Source: Lama guanicoe
Taxonomy: Eukaryota
Reading direction: 5' to 3'
Assembly: GCA_013239625.1 (NCBI GenBank)
Contig: MU053758.1
Coordinates: forward strand, 2,604,001 to 2,668,000
Length of the DNA: 64,000 bases
Shown: piece after piece, positions 2,301 to 41,859 of the stretch
Numbering within the stretch: the stretch's first letter is position 1
Layout: each line of letters starts with the position of its first letter
Notes under the pieces: model-generated
Seen by the model: only the letters and a program-made list of their open reading frames with translations
Database searches by the model: none
What the model was told of the DNA's origin: nothing
Translations under genes and position numbers: made by a program

Positions 2301-5300
2301 GCCGAAAGCCGCACAGCTTGTAAGGAGCTAGGATTCAATCCACACCTCTTTCTCTGACACCACTTCTCTTCTAGGTGTCCCTGTTGCTTAGCAAAGTGCG
2401 AGGCCCACGCAGAGGAGTGCTTTCTGGGGCTGGAAGTCCCTCTGTTTGGAATGCCCTTAGCCCTTCCCTTACTAACCAGAAATCCTACACATCCTTTACG
2501 GCTCAGCTCTAATGTGAGTTGTCACTGTGTTGAAACTTTCTCACACTCCCCAAGGAAAATTGGTTACTAAGGCTAACTTTAGGTAACTTTAGGCCAGTTC
2601 ATAGCATTTGTCAGGTTTGGAATCTCTCCGTGTTTGGAAGGAGACACTCCACTTCCCTGCCACCACCAAATTGTAGGATGGTGTCTTCTTTATGTTCAGA
2701 GCCTGGCGTTCAGTAGGCTTTAAAACTGGTATCTTATGGGCCTGTGTTGTTTCCAAACACATTATTTCTGCTTCCATCAAATCCGAAGCAGAATAAGTTA
2801 CTGCCGAAAATCTTCCTTGTATGCCCCACATCGGCTTAATTATTGTTCCTAACAGAGGACATTTATAGTTAAATATCAGGTTTGCCTAGGGGATGACAAT
2901 GATCATCTTTAAAATAGTTTCGCAACCAAAAAGATCCTTTTCTGATCTTTGAAATGATTCCACTAACCTCAAAAGTTTTTATTTCTGAAGGTTCTGAATG
3001 TGTGCGTTAAAACCAACTTGTAAATGTGTTACGTACTTTTTCATAAATAACACAATAATATCACAGAAAGGAGAAAAAAATTGACTCCCTAGCAGTCCAG
3101 AGTTTTAAAAATCTACTATGAGAAGCAAAAAGGACTTCAGCATTCTAAGTGTTATAATTATATGCTGATTTTTAAGATAGTGAACTCCAAAAAGAACTAA
3201 TCAAAGCAACTTTGGGACAAAATGGTAGGAAGTGTATTTCTTAATTTAATTTTGCTATATAATGTAGTTATATATTGTTGTATTTTGTCACAGTGAAATT
3301 ATATGTAGAATTACATCACAATAGCCCAGTCCTTCTCTGTACTGATTTTAAACGTGCTCAAAAGGAAACAGTGGACCCCACCTATTTATGGATTGGGCCT
3401 AATGAAAAACCATTAACAGGTAAATCATTTGATTTTAATATCTCCTTTTTTAAATGACTTAAACACTTTTTAAAGAAATGCACTGTCACTTATTGGAATA
3501 AACAAATTGAAGTTTAATTTTAACTGCAGTTTCACTTACTCCATAGTTAAATCATATTTATATTATGGTCTTACTTTCTCCTTATGCAAAAACTAAAGCA
3601 GTACTTTTTGTACGTTAGTCCCCAGAGCTGTATTAGTTCAGAAGTTTTTATAAAACCTAAAATTTATCCTTGTGATAAATGTGATAAAAGCACCTGCGGT
3701 AGGAGAGGAGGTAATTAATATATAATTTGTCATGGTTAGAAGGGTTTCTTGGAATAGAAGCATTATTACTTCCTGTCTTAGGTGAAAAAATTGCATAGTG
3801 TCACAAAGCAGTGTAATCTCCCTTACTGAATTACTGGCATAAATCCATCAAAATTAGATGCCAAGAAATAAATTAAAGAAAACCAAAATATATTTCAAAA
3901 GTGTACTTATCTCCTGTAGTTTTCGATTGAGCAATACCACAGAATTAAGATTTAGTTGAAATCATGAAGTTAAAATAGCCCATTAATTTTTAATTTTTTG
4001 TATTTATTTGTAACCCCAAGTTTACTAAATAATGTGTGAATTGTTACATGTTAAATAACCAAGTAATTTACTACTTCTGTTTAGGAACTAGTAGAATAAA
4101 TATAACTAAAACAGGAAAGCTGCTGGTAAAAGACTTTCTGGAGCCTTTGTCCGGACTTTACACATGCACTCTTTCTTATAAGATTGTCAAAGCAGAAACC
4201 CAAGAAGAAAAGACAGTAAAGCAGAGATACGACTTTATGCTTTTTGGTAAGAATACAGGCGCAGTTTAACTTATACATTTAGTTTGGGTCAGAATTAAGT
4301 ATATGGTTTCTTCATTTAGTGAAAATGAGTCTGTTATGTATAATCATTATGACTTACAGAGTTTTGGGGCTGTATTTGACTAGGAGAACTCTAAAATTGA
4401 CATCAAAATAGTGTGTCCTAAATAATCCTCTTTCAGCGTCCCACTTCCCACTGTCTGCGTATGCAGGCACAATCTATTTTATCACAATATCGCCAGGTAA
4501 TTTAAAAATTGATGCTCAAATCTATAAAAGCAAATTAATGATTCTTTTCACTGGACTGTGCTGATAGCAGTGACACTTCTATAAATGAAGACCCTCCCTA
4601 ACAAAATCTTATTTTTTTCTTGACACTTGTAACATATATATAGCCAGCCCACAAAAGCCATATCTTCACTTGTATGAAGTAGATAATATATTAGATGAAA
4701 ATAACCTTTTTTCATTAAAGTTACTAGTTTTTTATCTTTTTGTGAGGACAAACTGTTAAAATATTTTATTAGATAAAGTAAGTTTCTGTGCTGGTTTGCA
4801 AGATAGTGGGATTTAATATTACCTGTTATTTGAAAAGTAATGCTAGGCATGATTGTTTTTTATTCTTATCTTTTTTTAAAGCCTATCGGGAACCTGATTA
4901 TGCATATCAGATAGCTGTACGTTTTACCACAAAATCTTGTGTAGGAAAATATAATGATCTGCTTTTTAAAGTGCTGAAGAAAATCTTGAATAATTTAATT
5001 TCTGATTTGTCATGCCATATCATAGAACCATCATATAAATGCCATTTTGTTAAAATTCCAAAACATGGCCTCACTCATGAGCTGTTTATAGCCTTTCAAG
5101 GTAAAATTTTTTTCATGTTTCTTTAATTTTATGAGTTTAAATCTTGATTACAGAATTAATTACCATATTAATATAAGATAGCTTACAAATAGTAGGCCTT
5201 AAATGTTTGTTAAGAACTAAAGTGTACGGTTGGTCTTAGCCTGGTTGTGATTTTAAAAATTAACACATTAATTATTTACCTTCATATTTACCTATGATAT

Positions 5301-26490: not shown

Positions 26491-28337
26491 ATGGGGATGG
26501 TGAGGATGGACTGGGGAAGGGAGCACCCAGAGACTTGGTTGAATTGTTGAAGAGCTAACACAGAGTTAGGAACACCCAGTGTCAGGCTTCTCACCCAGCT
26601 GCAGCAGGGTGGAGACAACAATGTAAAGGGCGTAGACAGTTCGTGCCTGGGGGTCACAGCCCATATTCTGGGGCTGCTCCCTCCAGTCCTGCTTCAGGAT
26701 AGACTCCACCTGGAAGGAAATCCACCAGACTGTAAAAGCTAGGAACAAGGAAATATACTAGAAATGGCACATACATGGACACACTCCTTAATCCTGAGCC
26801 CACGGCAGACACAGTTATCCATCACAGCACTCTCTCCTGCGGAGCCCAGCGAGCCTCACACCCTCAGCATAGTGACAGGCACTGCTCATCAGTCAGCGTT
26901 GGCACTCAAGGTGGAGCCAGCCACCCTCCCGGGACTAACAGTTTTCCACCCGCTCTCTTGCCCACAGGCAAGCAATAGAGCCTGAAAAGCACATCCCTAA
27001 TTGTCCCAGAAACTGTATGTCTAGGGAATTGCCACAAACCGGCTACACAGACAGGAGCTGACAGAATTATAAAGGAGAGAGAGGCTGGTTCCTAGGTCCC
27101 TTGAGAGCATGCGCATTCACTTCCAGTGGGACTTGGGCCCTCAGCACAGGCTGTCTTACCTTGTTCTTCAACAGGGGCAGGGTCCCCTTCTCTAGGACCT
27201 CAGCCACAAGCTGCCGCTCCTCAGACAGCTCTGGGGGCAAAAAAGAGGGTGACTGGCAGAGAGGAGAGGCACGTAATGGGACAGGGCTTCACTGTCTGGT
27301 CAGACCTGGGACAAGCATCAGAGGAGGTTCCCGAGAGCCCCCGGGGGCCAGATGGGGGTTATTCCAAATGGGCTCCTGCTTTCCTCTTAGCCTGGGGAAG
27401 GGAAGGGGAAGCAGTCCCTCAATCCCTGGCCTGGGGAAGATGGCTAGTTTCTGAAATGTGAAGGTCTATGCCTCACAAAATGTAAAAGGCAATGTATACC
27501 CCCTTCCTCCCAAGATTTGATGCCCCACAGGCTCCTCTGCTCAGCGTCTCCTCCAGGTCAGCTCACATCCAAACCCTTCCTCACCTGTCATGGCATCCAG
27601 GACATCCCAAATGGCTTCTGTGTGCACTTCTACCAAGATCCCAACAGCATTAAAAAGGCTGCTTATGAAAAGAAATGCTGGGCCTTCTATCTGTAGCTCA
27701 CCAGACCTCAGGACATCAGACACCTAGGGCCAGGACAGGGGAGATGAGCCCAGTCCCATGATAGCAGACTGTCTTCAGTGTGTCACCTGCCCTCCCCACG
27801 GGCTCCTCTCTCCCTCTGCCCCAGTCCTTCCTTGGGCCTCTTACTCTTTGCTGTAGATCCTGCAGCTGTTCATCCCTGCTGAGGCGCTCAGTGAGGCAGC
27901 TTAGCACCTCTTTTCGCTCATCCTCAGTCAGATCCTGGAGGGCTCTCATCATGTCCTGCACCTTCTCCTCCATGTTTCTGAAATCCTCCAAATTCAAGGA
28001 CTTCCCTGTAGAAGCAGAAATTAAGAACCCAACCCACAGCCCAGCAAGCTCCATTACCTAGGCCCCCATTTTTCTGTCTTTATTCTGGAGACCACCTCTC
28101 TGTATCTTCCCTTCTTCTAATCTTTTCCTGTTAAAACAAAGCATCTTTCTTCCTAGACATCCATCATCATTGCCTCCCACTGGCCCCACATCCACCTTCC
28201 CAGCTCAGCCTCAGTCTAGTACCAAATCCAAATTCTTCTCCACCTCCAGGAAATCAAAGCCTATTTAGTCCTTGCCATTCAAAGTACAGTCTCTGGACAG
28301 CAGTAGGAGTAGTGAAGATTTGGAGGAAATTAGAGCA

Positions 28338-28520
28338 TTGGTTCTCAGCCTTGACAGTGCATGAGACTCACTTGGGGAGTGATTAAAAATCCCAATGTCC
28401 AGATCAGGCCACATCCCCGGATCAATTAAATCAGAATTTCTGGAGGTGGGACTCAGGTATCACTAGTTTTAAAGTTCCCCCCAGGTGATGTCTACGTACA
28501 ACCAATGAGAATCACTGTAG
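28338..28520. mobile_element. MER5A-like hAT DNA transposon (related copies at about 51535-51690 and 52895-53058)
   Basis: cattggttctcagccttgac...aatcagaatttctggaggtgggactcagg...ccccaggtgat...tgagaatcactg with terminal inverted repeats. Confidence 0.7.
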
Positions 28521-29946
28521 TGTTTAGGGAGGCAGATGCAATCCCCAGACTAAAGCTGAAAACTACTTTGGACACTGCCCAACCCTTCTCCTCCCAACAC
28601 ACCCCACTACCAGGCACACACACACATACTCAGCTGCCACACCTGAGCTGAACTCCTTGCGGCCACAGGACCCAAGGGTGAGGGGTGCAGCTACCCTGCA
28701 CACAACTGGCCCCCATCCTTACCTAACCAAGGTGAACCACCATCTTTTGCTGCAAAGAGAGGAAGAAGAGTCTTCAGACTAATCTCATAGAGTCTTCAGG
28801 TCACCTCCACCTCAATGTGGACATTCTTTTCCCAGTGGTGGAAGTTTTCATTTCTGGACTCTGAGCCCTCACGGCCAATGCCAGGGAGCCTGCATCCTCG
28901 TCATTGTGTGTCAGTGACAAAGCACTATATTTGCAGACCCTTTCCTACATCTCAGAGATGGGCAGCCATAGGATTAGGCCTAGAATGATTGAAGGAGAAA
29001 TGGAAGCCCAGAGAGGGTGCACCACGCCCTCAGCCACTCGGCAAATTTGGGTCAGGGCACAAACTGGAATCTGTCCCCTGACTCCTCTGTTACAGAACTT
29101 TGGAGTGACAGAGATGCACTCTTTTGAGCTAGCCAGGTCTTGCCAGGACTGAACCTGCAACTTCTACAACTTCCAGAAATTTTTCTTGAATTTTCTACCC
29201 CATCTAGATCTCTCCCTACTCCTTCCCAAGACCTCTTAGGCTGTACAACCCTTATGGGATTCGGGGAAAGACTCTGAAATTCCAGAGGAAGCCACATTCA
29301 GAATCATCAGGATCTTCTAGTCTAGTCCTAGCTCATATTGAAGTCAGTATAACCATGGCTCAGGAAGCTCCAGAGCTGGCAAGCAGCACAGCCAGCACTA
29401 GATCGGCCCTGAGACCGTCTGACTCCCAGCCCATTGCTCCTTTCACAGCTAGTGCTGTCATGTGAGAACTGGCCAGGCAACTCAATTGTGCTTCCTTGGC
29501 CAACAAGCCTTCAGTAGGGGCTGTGAGCCCAGGATCCAGCACACTGACCTGCACAGAGCCAATCGAAGTTAGCGGCGCCTGGAAACCCTGGGCTAACATG
29601 CAATCCAACCTGCTATTCCAAGAGGCAGACTCTTCTCCTGCCCTGACCACAGTTCCCAGCTGGGCGCATCCTATTACATTCTCAGCACTCATAACTCTAT
29701 AATTCCAAGCCATTTGTTATTCTCTTCTTTAAACTAGTATCCTTGCCCATTCTGGAACAATGAACAGGGGCCCAGAAGCTCACTCACCTTCTGGAAAGGA
29801 TTTTGTTTTGCCCAAAAAAAAAAAAAAAAAAAAAAACCTAAACCAGTCAAAAAAGAGACAGAGAAAGACCAATTATCACAAAGTCCAGTTCTCTCTCTGT
29901 AAGTTCTTCTTCCTAGCTTCTCCCCAGTCTTCCCACCCTGCCCCCA

Positions 29947-29947
<1 letters not shown>

Positions 29948-29980
<33 letters not shown>

Positions 29981-29992
29981 ATACACACACAC
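29948..29992 (+). repeat. (CA)n microsatellite in GSDMB intron 5
   Basis: Directly visible acacacac... run with two interruptions. Confidence 0.95.
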
Positions 29993-30426
29993 AATACTGG
30001 GAGAGAGATGGGAGTTAACACCTCTAGAGAAGAATTAGTGTCATGGGGGGGCAAGTCCTGGGTCAGTGGTTTCTGAGCAAGGACCCTCCATCCTTCTTCC
30101 CAGTCCTGAACCCTCCCTCTTCCCTGGAACTTCCCCCCACTTTCAAGCTCACCCGGGGCCCCTCCAGGCTGACACAGAACCTGGCAGAATTGACCCCCAC
30201 CCACCTCATGTACTCAGCCCCCCAACCCCAGGCCTTGCTTACTCATTGTCTCCGTCTTGGGGAAGACCAGCTGCTTTATTCGATAGCCCAGGACCTTCTT
30301 AGGGGAAATGGACACTGCCATTTGGTGCTAGGAAAAAGGCGCTCACATTTATTAATCCATAGGTGCTTGACATAGTTATCTTGTCTGATCTCCCAAACAA
30401 TCCTGGGAGGTAGACTTTTTTATCCT

Positions 30427-30514
30427 TTTTTTTTTTTAATGGAGGCACTGGAGAATGAATCTGGGACCTCACAAGCTAAGCATGCACTCTACCACTGAGC
30501 TCTACCCACTCCCC
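30427..30514 (-). mobile_element. tRNA-derived SINE
   Basis: T-run then aatggaggcactggagaatgaatctgggacctc...gcatgcactctaccactgagctctacccactcccc. Confidence 0.75.
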
Positions 30515-33500
30515 ATCCTCGTTTTACAGATGAGAAAACCTGGGCTCTGAGAGGGTCAGTACATAAGCCTGTTTTCACAGCAGCAGAGCCGACATTTAAA
30601 CCAGCATCTGACCCCAAAACTCATGTGGTTCCTAATTCATTCAACAAATACTTATTGAGGACAAAATATGCCTGTTTTGTTCCAGGCATTGTGGCTCCTG
30701 TCTTCTGCCTCCTAGAAAGGGAGGTAGGCAATGAACAAGCAAAACACAACCATGTAATTATGAGCCGTGGGAAGCGCTATGGTGCAAATGAAAACAGAGG
30801 ATCACTAGAGAGTAACAGGAGAGCAACTTATGATGCCACTAAGCGCGGGTGCCAGAGTCATGAGAAGGCCAAGGAGCAGGCAAGACTCCTCAGAGAGGTT
30901 GAAAGGAAGAGTCGAAGAGCCTGGCGTCTGGACCGGCATCCCCCAGACCTGCAAGGGATGAGCGAAGGCTGACTCTCCCACAGCCCCTGCCTCCCAGGAT
31001 CCTAACCTTGTATTCATATTGGAGATTCAAAAAATCCATCAGGATCTTCAAAATACATCACTTTCCACTTTCCATGGTTTCCTCCTTTGTCGTTTCCAGA
31101 GTTTCTGTCACCAGATACAGGTCTTCTTTCACATTCTGGATTGATCGGAATGAAAGGGGCAGTTCCCTCTTCAGCTTCCTGGACAAAGTAGAGAGGAAAT
31201 GAGAGGGGCCCCACCTCCCAGGAGCATTTATTTCTCCTTCTCCACCAGCTACTTCCTATTTAAGAGTAAGTGCTTCTGAGGCTGGAAAACCAAGGAACAC
31301 AGCACTCCCTCCCCATCGCTGTTCACTTTACGCCCTGTCAGGGGAAGGGGGTGCAAGGTGGGAGGGGAACCCGCTTGCATTTATGGACGCCCACAGTGCG
31401 CCAGCACCATGAGACACCTCACGCATCATTCCACTTAACCCTCACCACAACCTTACGTCGTGGGCAGGATTGCATCTACTTTTCATGTGAGGAAATTGAG
31501 GCTTTCGAGACAGGTCGTGAATGGTCCAAGTTCACACAGCTCATAAGGGTAGAGCTGGGTTTCAAACCCTGTCGGCATGAGTCCAAAGCCTGTGGTGCCC
31601 TTCGCTTGGCCCTGAGAAGGGCATCTGCCCAGTCCCAGACACCCCATCTCTGAGAGGGTCTCCAGCTCCCCGTGCTGGTTTCTCGGGCCTGGCCACATTG
31701 TCCACACTTGGGGCCCATGAGGCATCTCTCATTCCACAAGGAAATTCATTTTGTGACCTAAAACAACCTGATGGAATTTCTGGTATTTGCAACCAAAAGA
31801 CGCCTTAAGAAAGACTTACATCCCTCCCTGACCTTCTTTTACCTATCCTGTACCCTCCCCACAACTCTATTTACACATTCCACAAATCCTCACCCTAGAA
31901 ACAACAGGCATTCTAGAAGAAATTGAGTTCCCTTAGAAAAACTCCAAAGGCCCCTCCCCGGCAATACCCTGGTGGGTAGTAGATCAAAGGATCAGTAAAA
32001 TTTCACCGTAAGACTTTCAGTTTTTAATTGAAAAAGGAAAAACAAAAGGCATCCACCCTGCTCAGCGAGAGCTAGCCTAGGAAAACAGTGGGGCCCCTTC
32101 CCCTGAGCTGTCCACACTTTCCAACAACTCCAGCCAGGGAAGAAAACACCAATGCCAACAACAAGACGATTGCTGCTGATGTCCCTCTAAGTCCTTTGGA
32201 AAGACCATGCCCTCAGCTATCAGAACTTCTGTGGCACTAGTTTGGTGCCACCCTGGTGGGGTGGGTGGCGGCACTTCCTGTGCAGAAAATGTTTGACAGG
32301 GGCGCTTCAATTTCATTGTGCTTCACTTTAGTTCTCTTACTGAATACTTCCTGTGTGCTGGGGATAAACAGAGAGCTGAGTAAAGTCTGTTCTCAGCGCA
32401 GTGTAGGAGAGGGACATGGAAACTAGCGGCTTGCTGCAAGGCAGAGTGAAACACACCCGAACTCCAGATGTGGGCAGCACAGTATAGGAAAGCAGAGGAC
32501 AGTGGCGTCTTGAAACCAGCAGGTTTTGGTCCATGCCAGAGTAACTGGTCACTCTGGTGGACAGCAGGGAAGTGAGTGAATTGGGGGCGTCAGAAGAAGG
32601 ATTCTTGGAATCTGATCCTGGAAGGGCGAGAAGGCTTCCTGAGGATGGAGGAGAGGAAGGAGAGGAAGGCGTGCCTAAGTAAAGGAGTGGACTCGGGGAG
32701 TGCTGGGAGTGGAGAGAGAGAGGCTGCAGCAGCCAGGGTCCCCCCCATCTCGGATGTCCGTGGTGCCCAAAATGGGCTCCTCCTGTCTCGTTCCCCACTG
32801 CAACCCACATCCAGCCTTACCTGTTCTCAAGGGAATCCAGGTCTTTAATAACGTGGTGCTCCACTTCCAGGACCTGCTGAAGTCCATTTCAATGGGTTTT
32901 TTAAGTAATGTCAATGTCTCACTTCCCTTTGAGTCTACGTTGTCCATTAATTGGGATTCAGCTTCTGGGACTGGAAAGAGAAGGTAAAAGGTCACACTGA
33001 GGCTGACCCAAAAGATCTCCCTCTAGAAAATCCTCCCTGGAGCCCCCCATCCTGGGCTCCCTGATCCCCTTCCCTTCTGAGGAAGCCCCCAGCTGGGACT
33101 CTCCAGGAAATGCTGTTCTCACCAGAAATCACCAAGGTTTGAGCCTACTCTGCCACCTTCTTACCAAATGACCTTGGATAAGTCACTTCACCTTTGAATC
33201 TGTTTCCTCATCCATAGAAGGAGAATATTAATAGAACCTATTTCCTGTGCTTGAGGAAATTAAATAAAATAGTCCAGTTAAGCATTGAACAAAGTGCCTG
33301 GCACATATACTAAATGCTCAGTAAATGTGAGCGAGTCCTATTTAACTATTTAAGAGGCTGAAATGAGACAAGGAGATGTAAAACGAAAGGATCAGGAACC
33401 CCTGACAATTGGGAAATAAAAATGAAGCAGAGTTCAAGCTCTGGTGTTTGTGGGAACTGTGCAGGTGTAAAGTGAGGCAACCCTGGAGGACTCTGCCCGG

Positions 33501-36500
33501 CCTTGCAAAAGGCATTGCATCAGGGCCTTGATTCCCAGTCAGTTGCTGCCCCAGGGTTAGTGGGGCACATGTGGAGATGCCGCTGGGCTGAGTGCCTTTC
33601 TCTCAGGCCTCCCAGGTCTGAACCCACAGAGAAGGGAGAGAGAGCTTCTACTGCTGGGTATTGGGAAGCAGAGCTGGATTTCCAGATTTGGGGGGAAAAG
33701 AACGCATTTTGAAACTGGTAGAAACATGACAGACCTAGAAATAGTACCTGAAATCAGTCCTGTGTGTGATACTAATGTCTCAGGGCCCATTTGTTCCTTG
33801 AGCAACATAAAAATTTCTGTGTACTTTATCAGAGAGAAAGAAAAGTCACAGTAAGAAGAAGGGCAGGGGACAAGAGTCACTTTATAGTCATTACCTCAGC
33901 CAGGTGACCAAGGTCAACACCAACAATGACAAGTCAGATTGACAGTACATACCCTTTATGATGCGATGAGAACTGCCATTTACCTCTGCAGTCTTCCTCC
34001 AAAACCCATTACCTTAATCCAGCCATGAAGAAAAAAACATCAAATTCCAGTATAAGGGCATCTTACCTAGGCCTGACCAGTACTCCTTAAAATTTTCAAG
34101 GCCATTGAAAACAAGGAAAGTCTGAGATATTGTCACAGCCAAGAGGAACCTAAGGTGACCTGACAACTAAATGTAACATGGGATCCTGGAACAGAAAAAA
34201 GACACTAGATAAAAACTAAGGAAATCTGCATAAAGTATACACTTTAGAGGAAAAAAAATCCTATGTACACCATCCATACCATATAATTAAAAATAAATAA
34301 GTAATCCATTTGAAAAGTGAGCAGGCCAAGTGGCTGAAAATCAGTTCAAATTACCAGTTCATGTCATTCTTAAGGATTTTTTTTTTTTAAGTTTGGGTTC
34401 ACCTCTGCCTCTGCATTTTTTTTATGCAAAGAGATAGACTTTCCCTCTAGGGAAGTTAACTGACTTAGTCAAATTTTTTTTTTTTCCATACTGAAAGTTT
34501 GCCTCTGCCCCTGGGGAGTAACATGATCATTGCAAAACATCCTAGTCTTGGTTTAAAGTTTTGGTTTTTGGTTTTTGGTTTTTTTCTGTTTTCAGCGAAC
34601 TGGTCATTTGGCAAACTGATTTTTTTGAGAACTAGCTTTTAGTAAACTGAGTCTTGGCAATTTTCTTTTCAGAGAACGGACTCACAGAGTCTTTGAAAAA
34701 TGCTCATCTGAAATTTTTCTAAAGCCCCTTGCTTGCTAAATTAAACTTCACTGGTGGAAAAGCCCACCACCTCAGAGTAATACCAGCACTGCTCTTGGTC
34801 ACATAGCAGCAGTGCCTGGCACAGGACAGGTGCTCTCAAACTGTACAGTGGTGGTGACAGAATTCTTTTCTATCTCTTGGTCACCAACAAACTTCCCATT
34901 CAGTCATAATCTCCAGGAAACCGGAGGGGATAATAAAATAATGATTGGGGAGAACTTTTATTGACTGCTCCCCTGAGCAGACACTGTGGTAAATGATTTA
35001 CGTAAATTACCTCATTTGATTCTTGCAAGTTTTCTCGAGTTGACAGATAAGGAAACAAACTTAGGTAAAGCAACTTGTCCAGAGGTCACCCAGCCCGTCA
35101 GCAGAAGAGTCAGGCTTAGAAGCCAAATGCCGCCAAGCCTGCACCCTTTCTTAACCACTAAGCAAACTGCCTCCATTTATTTATCTATTTAAATGATAAA
35201 TATATAAACATGTAAGAAGACCTCAGCTAATTTAAAATTATTTACAAAGGGAAAAAACAGGAAATTAAGACTATTTAGGAATAGTTTCCAATAAAAATAA
35301 ATTTCCACTTCCCCTATTCCCTTCTCCCCACGCAGCTCTCCCATACATTTCTTAAATTGAGGTGTATGGACGTGTGCATACGAATTCCACGGTTTCTTTG
35401 TTGACTGGTTGACTTGGTTGATAGCAGTGGGGAGTTGAGACTGGGGTAGAGTAAGAGTGGGCAAAGTCTCCTGGCTCCATCTCTCACTCACCTCATACTG
35501 ACCTCGGAGCCCAGAATCCAGCTTATCAAACAGCTCTTCACCCTCTTCCATCTCCAGTATGTCCTTCAGAGTGAGGTCTGTCTTGTCATATTGGTAGCCA
35601 AGAAAACGCTTCTTCTTCTCCACCAGACAGAAGCAGTGGAATCTGTCAGCATCAATGATGCTTCTGACAGCAATCATATCCCCTCCAGGGTCCATCTCTT
35701 GGACCACAGCTCTTGTGTTTTCCTCAAATACCGTGGGCATTGTGCCTGGACCAACTTGGAAGAGGAAGCCAATTTCAGTTTGGGGGTGGTGGGGTGGATA
35801 CTGGTTCACGTTTTTAAATCTACCTTTGGCAGCCTGGGGTCAAGAAATATTTAAAAGTTCTAGGACAACCAGGACTTGGAATGATTTGCCTTCCCTGTTT
35901 TTAAGAAGGTGTGGTGGTCACTGCACACTAAGGTGGAATGACTACCACAAAGGCCAATTCTCCTCTGCCCTTCATGGAACCCTCTGGAGGAAAGAGAGAG
36001 CAGTGATTGCCCCAAAAGGAAAATAAGACCTGTTTTCTGCATCTCCCACAGCAGAGTTGCCCCTCACTCAGAGGGGCCTGAGGGGTGGGAAGGCAGGCCC
36101 ACCAGCCCCAGCCAGACCCTCACCAGTGTTGATGAAAGAGGATCCAGAAAGAGAAGAGGGGCTTGGCTGCCAGACCTCACATTACCAACCCCAACAGACA
36201 ACTCCTTCCCTTGGTTCTGACTCCTGGGCCTCCCTCCCTGCCTATTCTGCAAGGCAGTTGGATGGGTGTCCCCACCAACCATTGCCCACTGAGATGTTGC
36301 TAAATTGGCCTCAGAAGGAAGCAAAAAAGGTGGAGTACAAGAGTATCTTGGAGCTGGATGCCCTGGACAGCCCCCTACATCCAAGTCCTGTCTCCTCAGT
36401 TTCTGGTCACCTTCTAAAGGGTCCTCTTATACTTGGTAAAATAAAATGAATCCCCAAACCCCACCTAGGGCATCTCCCACCAGCCACTCTCCCCGCCACC

Positions 36501-37023: not shown

Positions 37024-37100
37024 CAATAATGGAGGTTGTAAGAATCCCCTGTGGGTAAGATCTCTGCACGGTTCCTGTGTTTAAGGAAGCTATAATAAGA
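37024..37100 (-). other. GSDMB: Probable non-coding 5' exon of GSDMB
   Basis: Strong donor ttg|GTGAGT at 37024/37023, about 1.3 kb upstream of the acceptor at 35755 that lies 14 nt before the ATG. The 5' boundary is uncertain. Confidence 0.45.
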
Positions 37101-38810
37101 GAACAGGAGAAAAAAAAAAACTAGAAAGCTGGGTGCCCCACCTCTCATTTATCTAAAGATAAGCCACATGATGTCTGGGCCGGAGACAGAGAGGCCAAAG
37201 GTAAGAAACCAACCCTTCCCTCCTCTTGGACCCAGGAAACAGGTAGGAGATAGATATTCACCTGGTATATATTCTAGGTGAGTTTGGGCTACAGAATGGT
37301 ACAGAACAAGGGATACTGAGCTGTGAGTTCGGAATAGAGAAATAGAATATGGGTACCAACCAAGTGACCGCAGGTAATGGCTATGGCTGTGCCAAGGATA
37401 TGACGAGAGAGACCTCATGGGAAAACCAGCCCCCCAGATCCCATGGTTGGGTAGGGGGGGACACCAAAGACTCAGGGAGCAACAGCAGCAAACATCTGTA
37501 GGGAACAGACTGGGCAGGTAAGGAGGACTCAGCTCCGCTGCCCACATCCTCCCTCAAGAGAGAGGCATCACCTGTCCTCTCCACCCACCTCCTCTAGGAT
37601 GAGCCCTCCGGCCCCACCCCAGTCCTCAGAGACAACCACCTGGGTGAGCCCAGCCTGTCTTCTGGCCCCTGCCTCCCTGAGTTCTGAAAGAACAATTAAG
37701 GAGATGGTAATGGCGGTAAAAAATTAACAATAATCAAACGGCTACCATGTGTTAAGTATTTACAACGTGCCAGGCGTTGTGCTAACACTCACAACAGCCC
37801 TACGAGGTAATATCCCTATACAAGAGGGGAAGAGACTGAAGCTCAGAGAAGTAACCTGACAAGCCACAAGACTAGTAAGTGACGGACCTAGGATTTGAAC
37901 CAATTGCTGTTAATGTGCCCCAGACCTTCACCCTGACTGCGCTCCTGCAGATCCATGCAAGCCCCCAGGGTGCCCCAACCCCAGGACTGAGCCCAGGTGG
38001 CTGCATGTCTCCTCCCAGTGCGGTGTGGGCCTCCCTCAGGGGCAGGTAGGGAGGCTGGGGAAGGGACTAGGGCAAAGATCCTGCACTCTTCCTGATATCC
38101 ACTTCCAAGGACACTGTGATGCTGGGCCAGGGCCAGAGAGGGGCCGAGGCTCCAGAGGGAAGCTGCTCCCTTCTACCTGGACTATGGGCCTGTCCTGGGG
38201 ACAGCAGATGATACTGCACAGAGCACGAGGTAAGGACTCCTCCCTTTCCCGGCCATTGGAGCCTAAATATGTCCTGAGGGGTTACCTCTTCCCCTCCCAC
38301 TCCCACTTAGGGCCGGCAGGGGGAAGCGGGAAGATTCCCCTGAAGACACAAAGGCCCGGAGGAGATGTAGCCCTCCAAGGGAAGGAGGAGAAGTGAAATG
38401 GGGGAGGAATTCAGAGGAAAGGACTGAGCACCCCTTGGGACTTTATGAAGCCATTGTTGAACTGACCCCTCCCTGGCCATGGCACAAGCCATCCCTCTGC
38501 CAGCCCAGCCTGGCTCAGCCAGCCTGTGGAGCCCAGAGGTGTTAAGTCCTGTCAGAGGAAGAGCCAGGATGCTGCTCTCTGGCCGGCTTGCTTGCGGCCT
38601 CGGCCAGTTCTCACAGCCCATACAGCCGCTCCAGCTTGCTCTGCGGGAGGGAGGCAGCGGGAGGAGCAGCAGTCCCAGGGTCCCTCCCACCATCCGAAGG
38701 GTCGGACTGATGCTCCCACAATCCCATCCCCCCAACTCCGCCCTGCCTCCTCCCCCAGAGCCCTCCAGGAAGCAGAGGCCAGACTCAGGCGAAACAGGAA
38801 CACATCGTCC

Positions 38811-40288: not shown

Positions 40289-41859
40289 TCAGTACTTATT
40301 GATTCCAAAAATCCGGACTCCGTGGAGCTGGGGCAGCTTGGGGATGAGCACGCTCATCAAGGACACAGTGTTGAGGATGAAATGGATCTGGTCGTACTTG
40401 GTATAGAAGCTGGTGAGGAAGTACCTGGGCAGGGCAGGTTGGGAGAGGTGTAAGACTCTGTTTGGGAGACCCCTTTCTCCCTCGCTCCCTGATGGGGAGG
40501 GGCAGGTTCCCGACAGCCGAGGAGTTCTGGGCAAGACCCCGGAACAGAAGTAGGGTGGCAAGATCCCTCCAGCTAAAGAAGCACCCGCTGACCCCGTCCC
40601 CTTGCTCTACCCAGGCCTGCGGACCCACTTTACTAGCAGGAAGGAAGCCCCAGCCAAGGATAGGCAGGACCAGGGAGGCACAGGCCTGAGCCCAGCGTAA
40701 GACCCAGGGATACTGTGACTTCCCCTCCTCTGCTCATTCCTATGCCAAGAGCCAGAGCTGGTGAAGAGTTTAAGCCTTGCGGGGCCCCAGGTCCTCCTCT
40801 ACCCAAGACACTCACAGCACGATAGGTGTGATGGTCAGGAATTTCCGAGACGCTGTGAACTGGACCCCATAGTCCATCTGTTCCCAGTGGGTTAGCAACC
40901 TCGCCTTGCCCTGGTCCGGGGTCTCAAACGGTGTCCCTTTCACTGTGTGCAGGAAGATGTACATGCCCTGGAAGCAGGGGGATCCTTCGTTAGAGGACAC
41001 AAAAGGTCAAAGGCTCTCCAGCTCAACTTCTCCACCCCAGTCATAGAAGTGGGCTCCAGGTGATCTGGAGCTCCTCTCTGCTGGGCAGGGGGATGTGGGC
41101 TGGAGGTCAGGCTGGAGCAGCTGGGAGCCTGGCAGGAGAGTGAGGAGACCCACTGGGTGAGAGGGCAGGCCTGGCATGAGAACTCATGGAGAGGAGGCAG
41201 CTACAGAACCAGCAGGGAGATGCCGCCCCTCCAGCCCGGCGGTGGCCTCCCTGTGCTAGCTGGGAGGGGACAAGCTCAGAGGAAGGAACTGGGCCCCTGT
41301 TTTCCCACCAAAAGAGTACCAGGTCGCAAGCAGGTGGTGAGGGAGCAGAGAGGGGCAAGAGGGGTAGACGGTTTGAGATCCTAGCTTCGGAAAGAGGTAT
41401 TTCTACCCTAGGCTAGGCACCTGGGTCCTGTGGACTCTTTGGGGCCCTTAGTTCAGCTCTCAAAGCCCATCTTCGAGGTCCACAAGCTGCACCGGCCCCC
41501 CTAGACCCTGGACATATCTGCAGACTTTATTCCAATAAGAGGAAGTAGGGCACAGAGATGAGAGCTGGGTCTGGGCTCTGGTGACTGCTGTTGTCAGCCT
41601 GTCACGCTGTCATCTGGCCCATGTCTAGGGGGGCTCCTTCTACTTCTCGGCCTCGCCCAAGGGCAGGCAGCAGGCAGGCCCTCACCATGTTGTGGATGAG
41701 GTTGGTGAGGGTCCAGACGACGGGGACGCTCACAAAGGGGATGCTGAGCAGCACGACGTGGAGAAGCCCGATGGCCAGCACGTAGGAGAGCCAGATGCCG
41801 CGGCTGTTCATCACCCGCGTGTTGGGGTTCACCTCGCTGTGCGCCGTTCCCACATTCAT
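40289..41859 (-). CDS. ORMDL3: ORM1-like protein 3 (serine palmitoyltransferase regulator), 153 aa, intact
   Basis: Exons 41859-41686, 40967-40816, 40424-40289 (174+152+136 = 462 nt, GT-AG). [34 protein letters not shown]...[25 protein letters not shown]...[18 protein letters not shown]. Confidence 0.98.

Follow-up and report, generated by a model that had tools for sequence, protein, structure and literature searches.

Does the guanaco still possess a working gasdermin B? The gene in question, GSDMB, encodes a pore-forming effector that killer lymphocytes trigger via granzyme A. In the window, by which we mean the whole stretch of 64,000 nucleotides (nt) analysed here (Lama guanicoe, GenBank assembly GCA_013239625.1, contig MU053758.1, positions 2,604,001 to 2,668,000 of the forward strand), it is represented by a ten-coding-exon orthologue on the minus strand at 26566-35740, with ZPBP2 and ORMDL3 on either side. 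The original prediction held that this gene is pseudogenised, with a frameshift in exon 3, a TGA in exon 4 and a changed length of exon 6 among otherwise intact exons and splice sites. All three lesions are present in the assembly at the coordinates listed below. Our analysis supports the view that the locus, as assembled, would be unable to encode a full gasdermin, and we consider it very likely that the window GSDMB is a single-copy orthologue turned unitary pseudogene.

The exon model was based on tblastn matches of Camelus (P0001, P0002) and Equus (P0004) GSDMB proteins, together with direct reading of the sequence, and comprises the following exons and stop codons:

35740-35503, minus strand: exon 2 (first coding exon), 238 nt, ATG at 35740, open; the tblastn match of Equus P0004 begins at 35740
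32970-32821, minus strand: exon 3, 150 nt, frameshifted
31178-31007, minus strand: exon 4, 172 nt, with an in-frame TGA
31173-31171, minus strand: earliest premature stop, TGA, met in the ATG frame downstream of the exon-3 frameshift when the spliced exons are translated
31060-31058, minus strand: exon-4 in-frame stop, TGA, in the original frame
30327-30243, minus strand: exon 5, 85 nt, open
29837-29788, minus strand: exon 6, 50 nt, with a run of T
28749-28723, minus strand: exon 7, open
28005-27845, minus strand: exon 8, open
27723-27585, minus strand: exon 9, open
27230-27160, minus strand: exon 10, open
26709-26566, minus strand: exon 11, open, including the TAA at 26568-26566

The splice sites are canonical throughout, with GT in 9/9 donors and AG in 9/9 acceptors, and exons 2, 5 and 7-11 are all open in their expected frames, just as had been predicted; exons 7-11 (26566-28749) correspond to the C-terminal regulatory domain of GSDMB.

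The first lesion in the direction of transcription lies in exon 3. The start of this exon reads in the frame of the ATG, and its last 20 nt, which encode LDSLEN(R), read in the frame that joins exon 4. The length of exon 3 implied by the Camelus protein is 169 nt (55 full codons plus 4 split-codon bases), so that the 150 nt found in the window point to a 19-nt frameshifting deletion. The residues lost (of the ISPRYLDS type, aligned with human GSDMB residues about 126-132) are carried by Camelus P0001, P0127, P0128 and P0131 and by 13/13 non-camelid outgroups, with the Camelus proteins reading ...LLKTWISPRYLDSLENRKLKR... across the segment deleted from the window exon. At the deletion site stands the sole remaining copy of the 9-nt word ACCTGGATT (32842-32834). 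As this word is able to code for the TWI ahead of the gap and also for part of the YLDS that follows, the deletion may plausibly have arisen by slippage between a pair of short direct repeats, as judged from protein. Under canonical splicing, translation stops at the TGA at 31173-31171 after 131 codons, yielding a product of 131 amino acids (aa) that ends in WIPLRTGS, the ending and approximate length that had been predicted. Since this stop lies far upstream of the last exon junction, the mRNA would be expected to undergo nonsense-mediated decay, and any product that escaped would lack most of the pore-forming domain. As a separate observation, the segment of exon 3 (32970-32821) corresponding to the first membrane hairpin of other gasdermins is strongly diverged in both the window and Camelus, including a one-residue deletion; on the 13-mammal alignment, this divergence is older than the split of the two camelid tribes.

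The second lesion interrupts exon 4 in its original frame, where the window reads ESGK-stop-CIL (31060-31058) and Camelus reads ESGKRCIL. Every Camelus protein seen has an arginine at this position (R174), the aligned human residue is Q175, and the stop may stem from a CGA-to-TGA change. The third lesion concerns the length of exon 6, which is 50 nt in the window and 39 nt in Camelus, the latter figure following from the fact that P0001 and P0131 read this exon in two different frames. The 11 extra bases accompany a run of 23 T (29836-29814), confirmed by Tandem Repeats Finder, which replaces the T-rich 5' part of the exon that codes for ICFS, and the frame is lost as assembled. As the exon-6 frame hangs on the length of a homopolymer, this is the weakest of the three lesions. 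An (AC)n microsatellite of about 23.5 copies (29947-29993) lies in intron 5, some 110 nt upstream of exon 6 in gene orientation. Selenocysteine insertion or programmed frameshifting as a cause of the TGA and the frame change was rejected without a dedicated test, given three unrelated lesions and orthologues with Arg or Gln at the stop; gasdermins are not known to be selenoproteins.

Could a product nonetheless remain? Among 256 exon-skipping combinations, 16 are open from ATG to TAA, and none of these keeps exon 4 or exon 5. The largest omits exons 4-6, which leaves an open frame since the length of exon 3 has become divisible by three; it would join the first 129 residues to the C-terminal domain in a protein of 309 aa without the core of the pore-forming domain. 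A 160-aa open reading frame that spans the C-terminal domain is also present in the canonical transcript. A GT inside exon 3 (CAG followed by GTCCTG) was tried as an alternative donor and discarded, as it restores the frame into exon 4 but the exon-4 TGA still truncates the product. In human GSDMB, pyroptosis requires the translation of exon 6, according to the consulted part of PMC10154425, and hence no pore-forming product is conceivable from the window sequence. Two RNA-seq runs and four further runs that may be RNA hold 0.09-0.19 of the sampled window words and provide no evidence of expression.

The identity of the locus as the GSDMB orthologue is supported by structural matches, domain profiles and gene order, in line with the original assignment. 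The exon-2 peptide matches human GSDMB chains in PDB with an E value of about 1e-24, followed by GSDMA3 (1e-11) and by GSDMD and GSDME (1e-7), and exon 2 alone scores 62 bits against Pfam PF04598, the gasdermin pore-forming family (cut-off 25). The exon-4 fragment reaches 15.8 bits against the same family, under the cut-off of 25; exon 8 alone reaches 19 bits against PF17708, under its cut-off of 36.3, and exons 9 and 11 taken singly gave no match. Exons 8-11 align at 90-100% identity to the Camelus protein, which itself carries PF17708. In a collection of 5.8 billion proteins, the best matches are Camelus gasdermin-B proteins (94-96% identity), followed by those of Hippopotamus and Equus (74%), and all named proteins among the matches listed are gasdermin-B. 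Two neighbours serve as synteny markers:

40313-41829, minus strand: ORMDL3 coding exons, PF04061 matches (C1600:2644313-2645829)
3293-4245, plus strand: two exons of ZPBP2, PF07354 matches (C1600:2607293-2608245)

With a gasdermin paralogue match just past the window end, this arrangement agrees with the human gene order (ZPBP2, GSDMB and ORMDL3, near GSDMA), the usual GSDMB neighbourhood.

We found no second GSDMB copy in the 2.05-Gb assembly of 55,231 contigs, as far as that assembly is complete; an intact second copy would have counted against the original prediction. A six-frame search with P0001 gave 11 matches, comprising 9 exons of this locus and 2 paralogues at 40-42% identity. Both paralogue matches are weak. 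One (42% identity to the first coding exon; C1600:2673464-2673688, plus strand) lies about 5.5 kb past the window end in an open frame of 139 aa, and the other (40% identity to the first coding exon; C12518:6228347-6228568, plus strand) lies on a different contig in an open frame of 116 aa. Three protein searches, covering 14 proteins, the best 120 of 130 and 2 proteins, contained no GSDMB protein of this lineage. A comparison of exon 2 with proteins of 47-151 aa, in which a short open reading frame of this lineage might appear, gave only two matches, both from other species (73% and 62% identity).

We compared the window with the proteins of Camelus bactrianus, C. ferus and C. dromedarius, which carry intact versions at all three lesion sites. 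The Camelus GSDMB records (412 and 461 aa) are annotated as full length and bear no 'LOW QUALITY PROTEIN' flag, while those of dugong, red deer and several bats in the same lists do. Camelus GSDMB, for example that of C. bactrianus (XP_045376693.2, 412 aa, P0127), is the orthologue of the window gene and shares its exon structure and the diverged, camelid-specific exon-3 sequence; identity over the compared residues is 94% (23/399 differ). It differs in keeping the 19 nt of exon 3, in having Arg where exon 4 of the window has its stop and in an exon 6 of 39 nt, such that its frame is complete. The lesions are therefore younger than the split from camels, and the data support a GSDMB loss that is specific to this lineage and independent of the rodent loss, as had been proposed. 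On this reading, 19 nt would have been lost from exon 3 after the split, the exon-4 stop gained, and the T-rich start of exon 6 replaced by the 23-T run (+11 nt). The animal would thereby lack the granzyme-A-to-GSDMB pyroptosis route, which camels appear to keep.

To compare residues, we used a read-through of the window exons with an X at each break, and an outgroup set of 13 non-camelid GSDMB proteins hand-selected from 130 matches. The window differs from Camelus P0001 at 26/401 residues (and from P0127 as given above). Polarised against the outgroups, the window accounts for 16 derived changes and Camelus for 7, with 3 ambiguous, a relative-rate excess that is not significant (binomial p = 0.093). 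Several of the window changes affect near-invariant sites, namely T193S (13/13 outgroups have T), P195S (11/13), C278R (11/13), A318V (12/13) and R325H (12/13). The first two of these fall in exon 5, inside the VTIPP motif (T in 13/13 and P in 11/13 outgroups), and 9/16 of the window-derived changes, C278R and R325H included, fall in the C-terminal exons. As a neutral yardstick we took non-coding stretches that Camelus models translate (upstream exons and intron read-through), which differ at 8/131 codons by a small hand count that is biased to low divergence since only BLAST-alignable segments were counted; at 6.5%, coding divergence is about the same. Residue differences between alpaca and camel in proteins of the same pathway are reported, in the consulted part of PMC7924851, as 5 for perforin, 1 for granzyme K and 10-11 for granzyme A. 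Taken together, the coding, yardstick and pathway-protein divergences fit near-neutral evolution over much of the branch, and the dating arguments are not statistically firm.

Camelus GSDMB shows changes of its own. Its position 1 is Leu, where 13/13 outgroups and the window (35740-35732) have Met; the ancestral ATG is thus kept in the window and lost in Camelus (M1 to L), whose start is a new Met two codons later. Two further Camelus changes, D262G and L321F, affect sites that are invariant in the 13 outgroups, and judging from these residues, camel GSDMB itself may be under weakened constraint. The N-terminal extensions of Camelus P0001 and P0129 match the window at 37025-37108 and 38590-38727 (minus strand, 81-93% identity), and the window has an in-frame stop in the stretch 38590-38727; these matches are probably untranslated upstream GSDMB exons that the Camelus gene models translate. 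Two short dromedary gasdermin-B models, P0002 and P0131 (229 and 255 aa), extend into intron 4 or 5 (30893-31007, 30150-30241), with exon 6 out of frame, and look like annotation artefacts, not real short proteins.

How old is the loss? Three disabling events in 1.2 kb, set against generic mammalian mutation rates, suggest millions of years and not a fresh event, and the pseudogene is probably millions of years old. The original prediction had called the loss relatively recent; this stands insofar as the loss postdates the camel split, but three lesions together with 16 versus 7 derived changes point to a long decay. Camelids have evolved independently for >11 million years, as stated in the consulted part of PMC13751797. 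The splice sites and C-terminal exons would then be intact because there has been too little time for them to be hit, and not because they are used.

Several points weigh against reading the locus as a unitary pseudogene. All lesion evidence rests on one assembly. The 19-nt deletion, its origin by repeat slippage and the CGA-to-TGA change were deduced from the Camelus protein only. Exon 6 would be back in frame if its T-run numbered 21 or 24 bases and not 23, and homopolymers of about 23 T are both error-prone and polymorphic. The relative-rate excess falls short of significance, and the neutral yardstick is small and biased to low divergence. Finally, 18/18 splice-site dinucleotides and 7/10 coding exons are intact, as would be seen in a young or segregating null allele.

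That last alternative, under which real lesions are confined to one haplotype and the species or a sister species retains an intact allele, we consider unlikely. One haplotype of one assembly was seen, which together with the intact splice sites and exons and the non-significant rate excess is what a segregating allele would allow. However, for one haplotype to have gathered three independent disabling events and an excess of derived substitutions, it must have been non-functional for long, and an intact allele would have needed to persist beside it throughout. The assembly contains no contig with an intact or alternative haplotype, and no GSDMB protein of the lineage appears among the matches listed from the databases searched.

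An assembly artefact, under which the animal would have an intact gene and sequencing or assembly errors would account for the deletion, the stop and the length of the T-run, is very improbable. The 23-T homopolymer is a classic error site, where one base more or two fewer restores the frame, and the assembly is fragmented (55,231 contigs). However, two of the three lesions are not of the homopolymer type: the 19-nt deletion and the stop, the latter a single-base change, both lie in unique sequence. The adjoining ORMDL3 matches PF04061 over positions 1-135 with no frame break between exons, and the window contains no N. The same sequence also carries the 16 derived residue changes, some at near-invariant sites, which errors do not explain. 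An ORMDL family search of the assembly gave three three-exon loci, as expected for ORMDL1-3, with the window locus free of frame breaks. Of 24 sequencing runs, 14 contain at least half of the sampled window words (four organism labels, 7 studies), and the share of sampled 31-letter words is 0.93-0.96 in contigs belonging to runs with three other organism labels; the region is thus well represented there, and these shares are silent on the lesions, just as run word shares of 0.93-0.98 show that the region exists in those runs and not that the lesions do. One scan of metagenomes for independent camelid DNA, with an exact 23-nt exon-4 motif, returned 0 matches.

A residual function, be it through a protein made without exons 4-6, through translation of the C-terminal domain from an internal start or through a regulatory RNA, would accord with the open 309-aa and 160-aa frames, with the retention of every splice site and with the pyroptosis-independent activities reported for human GSDMB in the consulted part of PMC10154425, but is scarcely credible, as nothing indicates that the exons-4-6-skipped or C-terminal-domain products are made, not one of the 16 open combinations includes exon 4 or exon 5, which leaves all of them unable to form a pore, and the 9/16 derived changes in the C-terminal exons, C278R and R325H among them, argue against constraint on that domain.

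The unitary pseudogene thus proposed can be set beside other disruptions of GSDMB. Numerous mammals have lost the gene, rabbits keep a remnant of it, hamsters possess it, and multiple independent losses have been inferred, according to the consulted part of PMC10948149. The losses in mouse and rat and the rabbit remnant described there resemble the window in being lineage-specific losses of GSDMB; yet the gene is absent from mouse and rat and an interrupted remnant in rabbit, whereas the window, from an artiodactyl, keeps the gene body, all splice sites and most exons. As its skeleton is still readable, the loss in the window would be much younger than those of mouse, rat and rabbit. In dog, cat and tiger, GSDMB is reported to lack protease cleavage residues (consulted part of PMC7876337), which amounts to a comparable claim that the GSDMB route is weakened in a lineage of domestic animals. 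In these carnivores the cleavage residues are missing from a gene that is otherwise coding, while the window keeps Lys at the human cleavage sites (GKTKSFPE, LGK-SL) and has its frame destroyed. The exon-6-less isoforms of human GSDMB described in PMC10154425 offer a parallel, exon 6 being disrupted in the window too; in that account they are regulated splice variants of an intact gene, whereas in the window the change to exon 6 is genomic, and the protein is already cut short by two lesions upstream of it. For granzyme A, the activator, the consulted part of PMC7924851 describes a single gene copy, potentially functional, in both alpaca and camels. A gasdermin family analysis in BMC Biology (PMC8742441) makes no mention of camelids in the part consulted, and our literature search found no paper on GSDMB loss in camelids, a loss that gene-loss catalogues (TOGA, NCBI gene records) may already list; what it did find for alpaca and llama was papers on nanobodies or names of authors.

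For the gasdermin family, the finding leaves the knowledge of mechanism unchanged. Because mouse and rat lack GSDMB, in-vivo work has been held back, and the repeated loss of the gene in mammals is documented, as set out in PMC10948149 as far as consulted; such repeated loss being already published, a young loss in a camelid tribe would be a further data point. What it adds is a readable gene skeleton alongside a sister tribe that retains the gene, such that the loss can be dated and its consequences studied in closely related large animals. The probable loss also calls for caution when immunological work takes llamas or alpacas as its model animals. The loss of the Camelus start codon and three changed outgroup-invariant positions hint that constraint on GSDMB may have been weakening in camelids as a whole. 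We put at about even the chance that the inactivation has become fixed throughout the South American camelids, is several million years old and derives from their common stem, with Camelus keeping the gene. If so, the llama, alpaca, guanaco and vicuna would each be a large mammal naturally null for GSDMB, and camelids would provide matched domestic lineages, one having and the other lacking the granzyme-A-to-GSDMB killing route, in which its contribution to mucosal defence could be tested.

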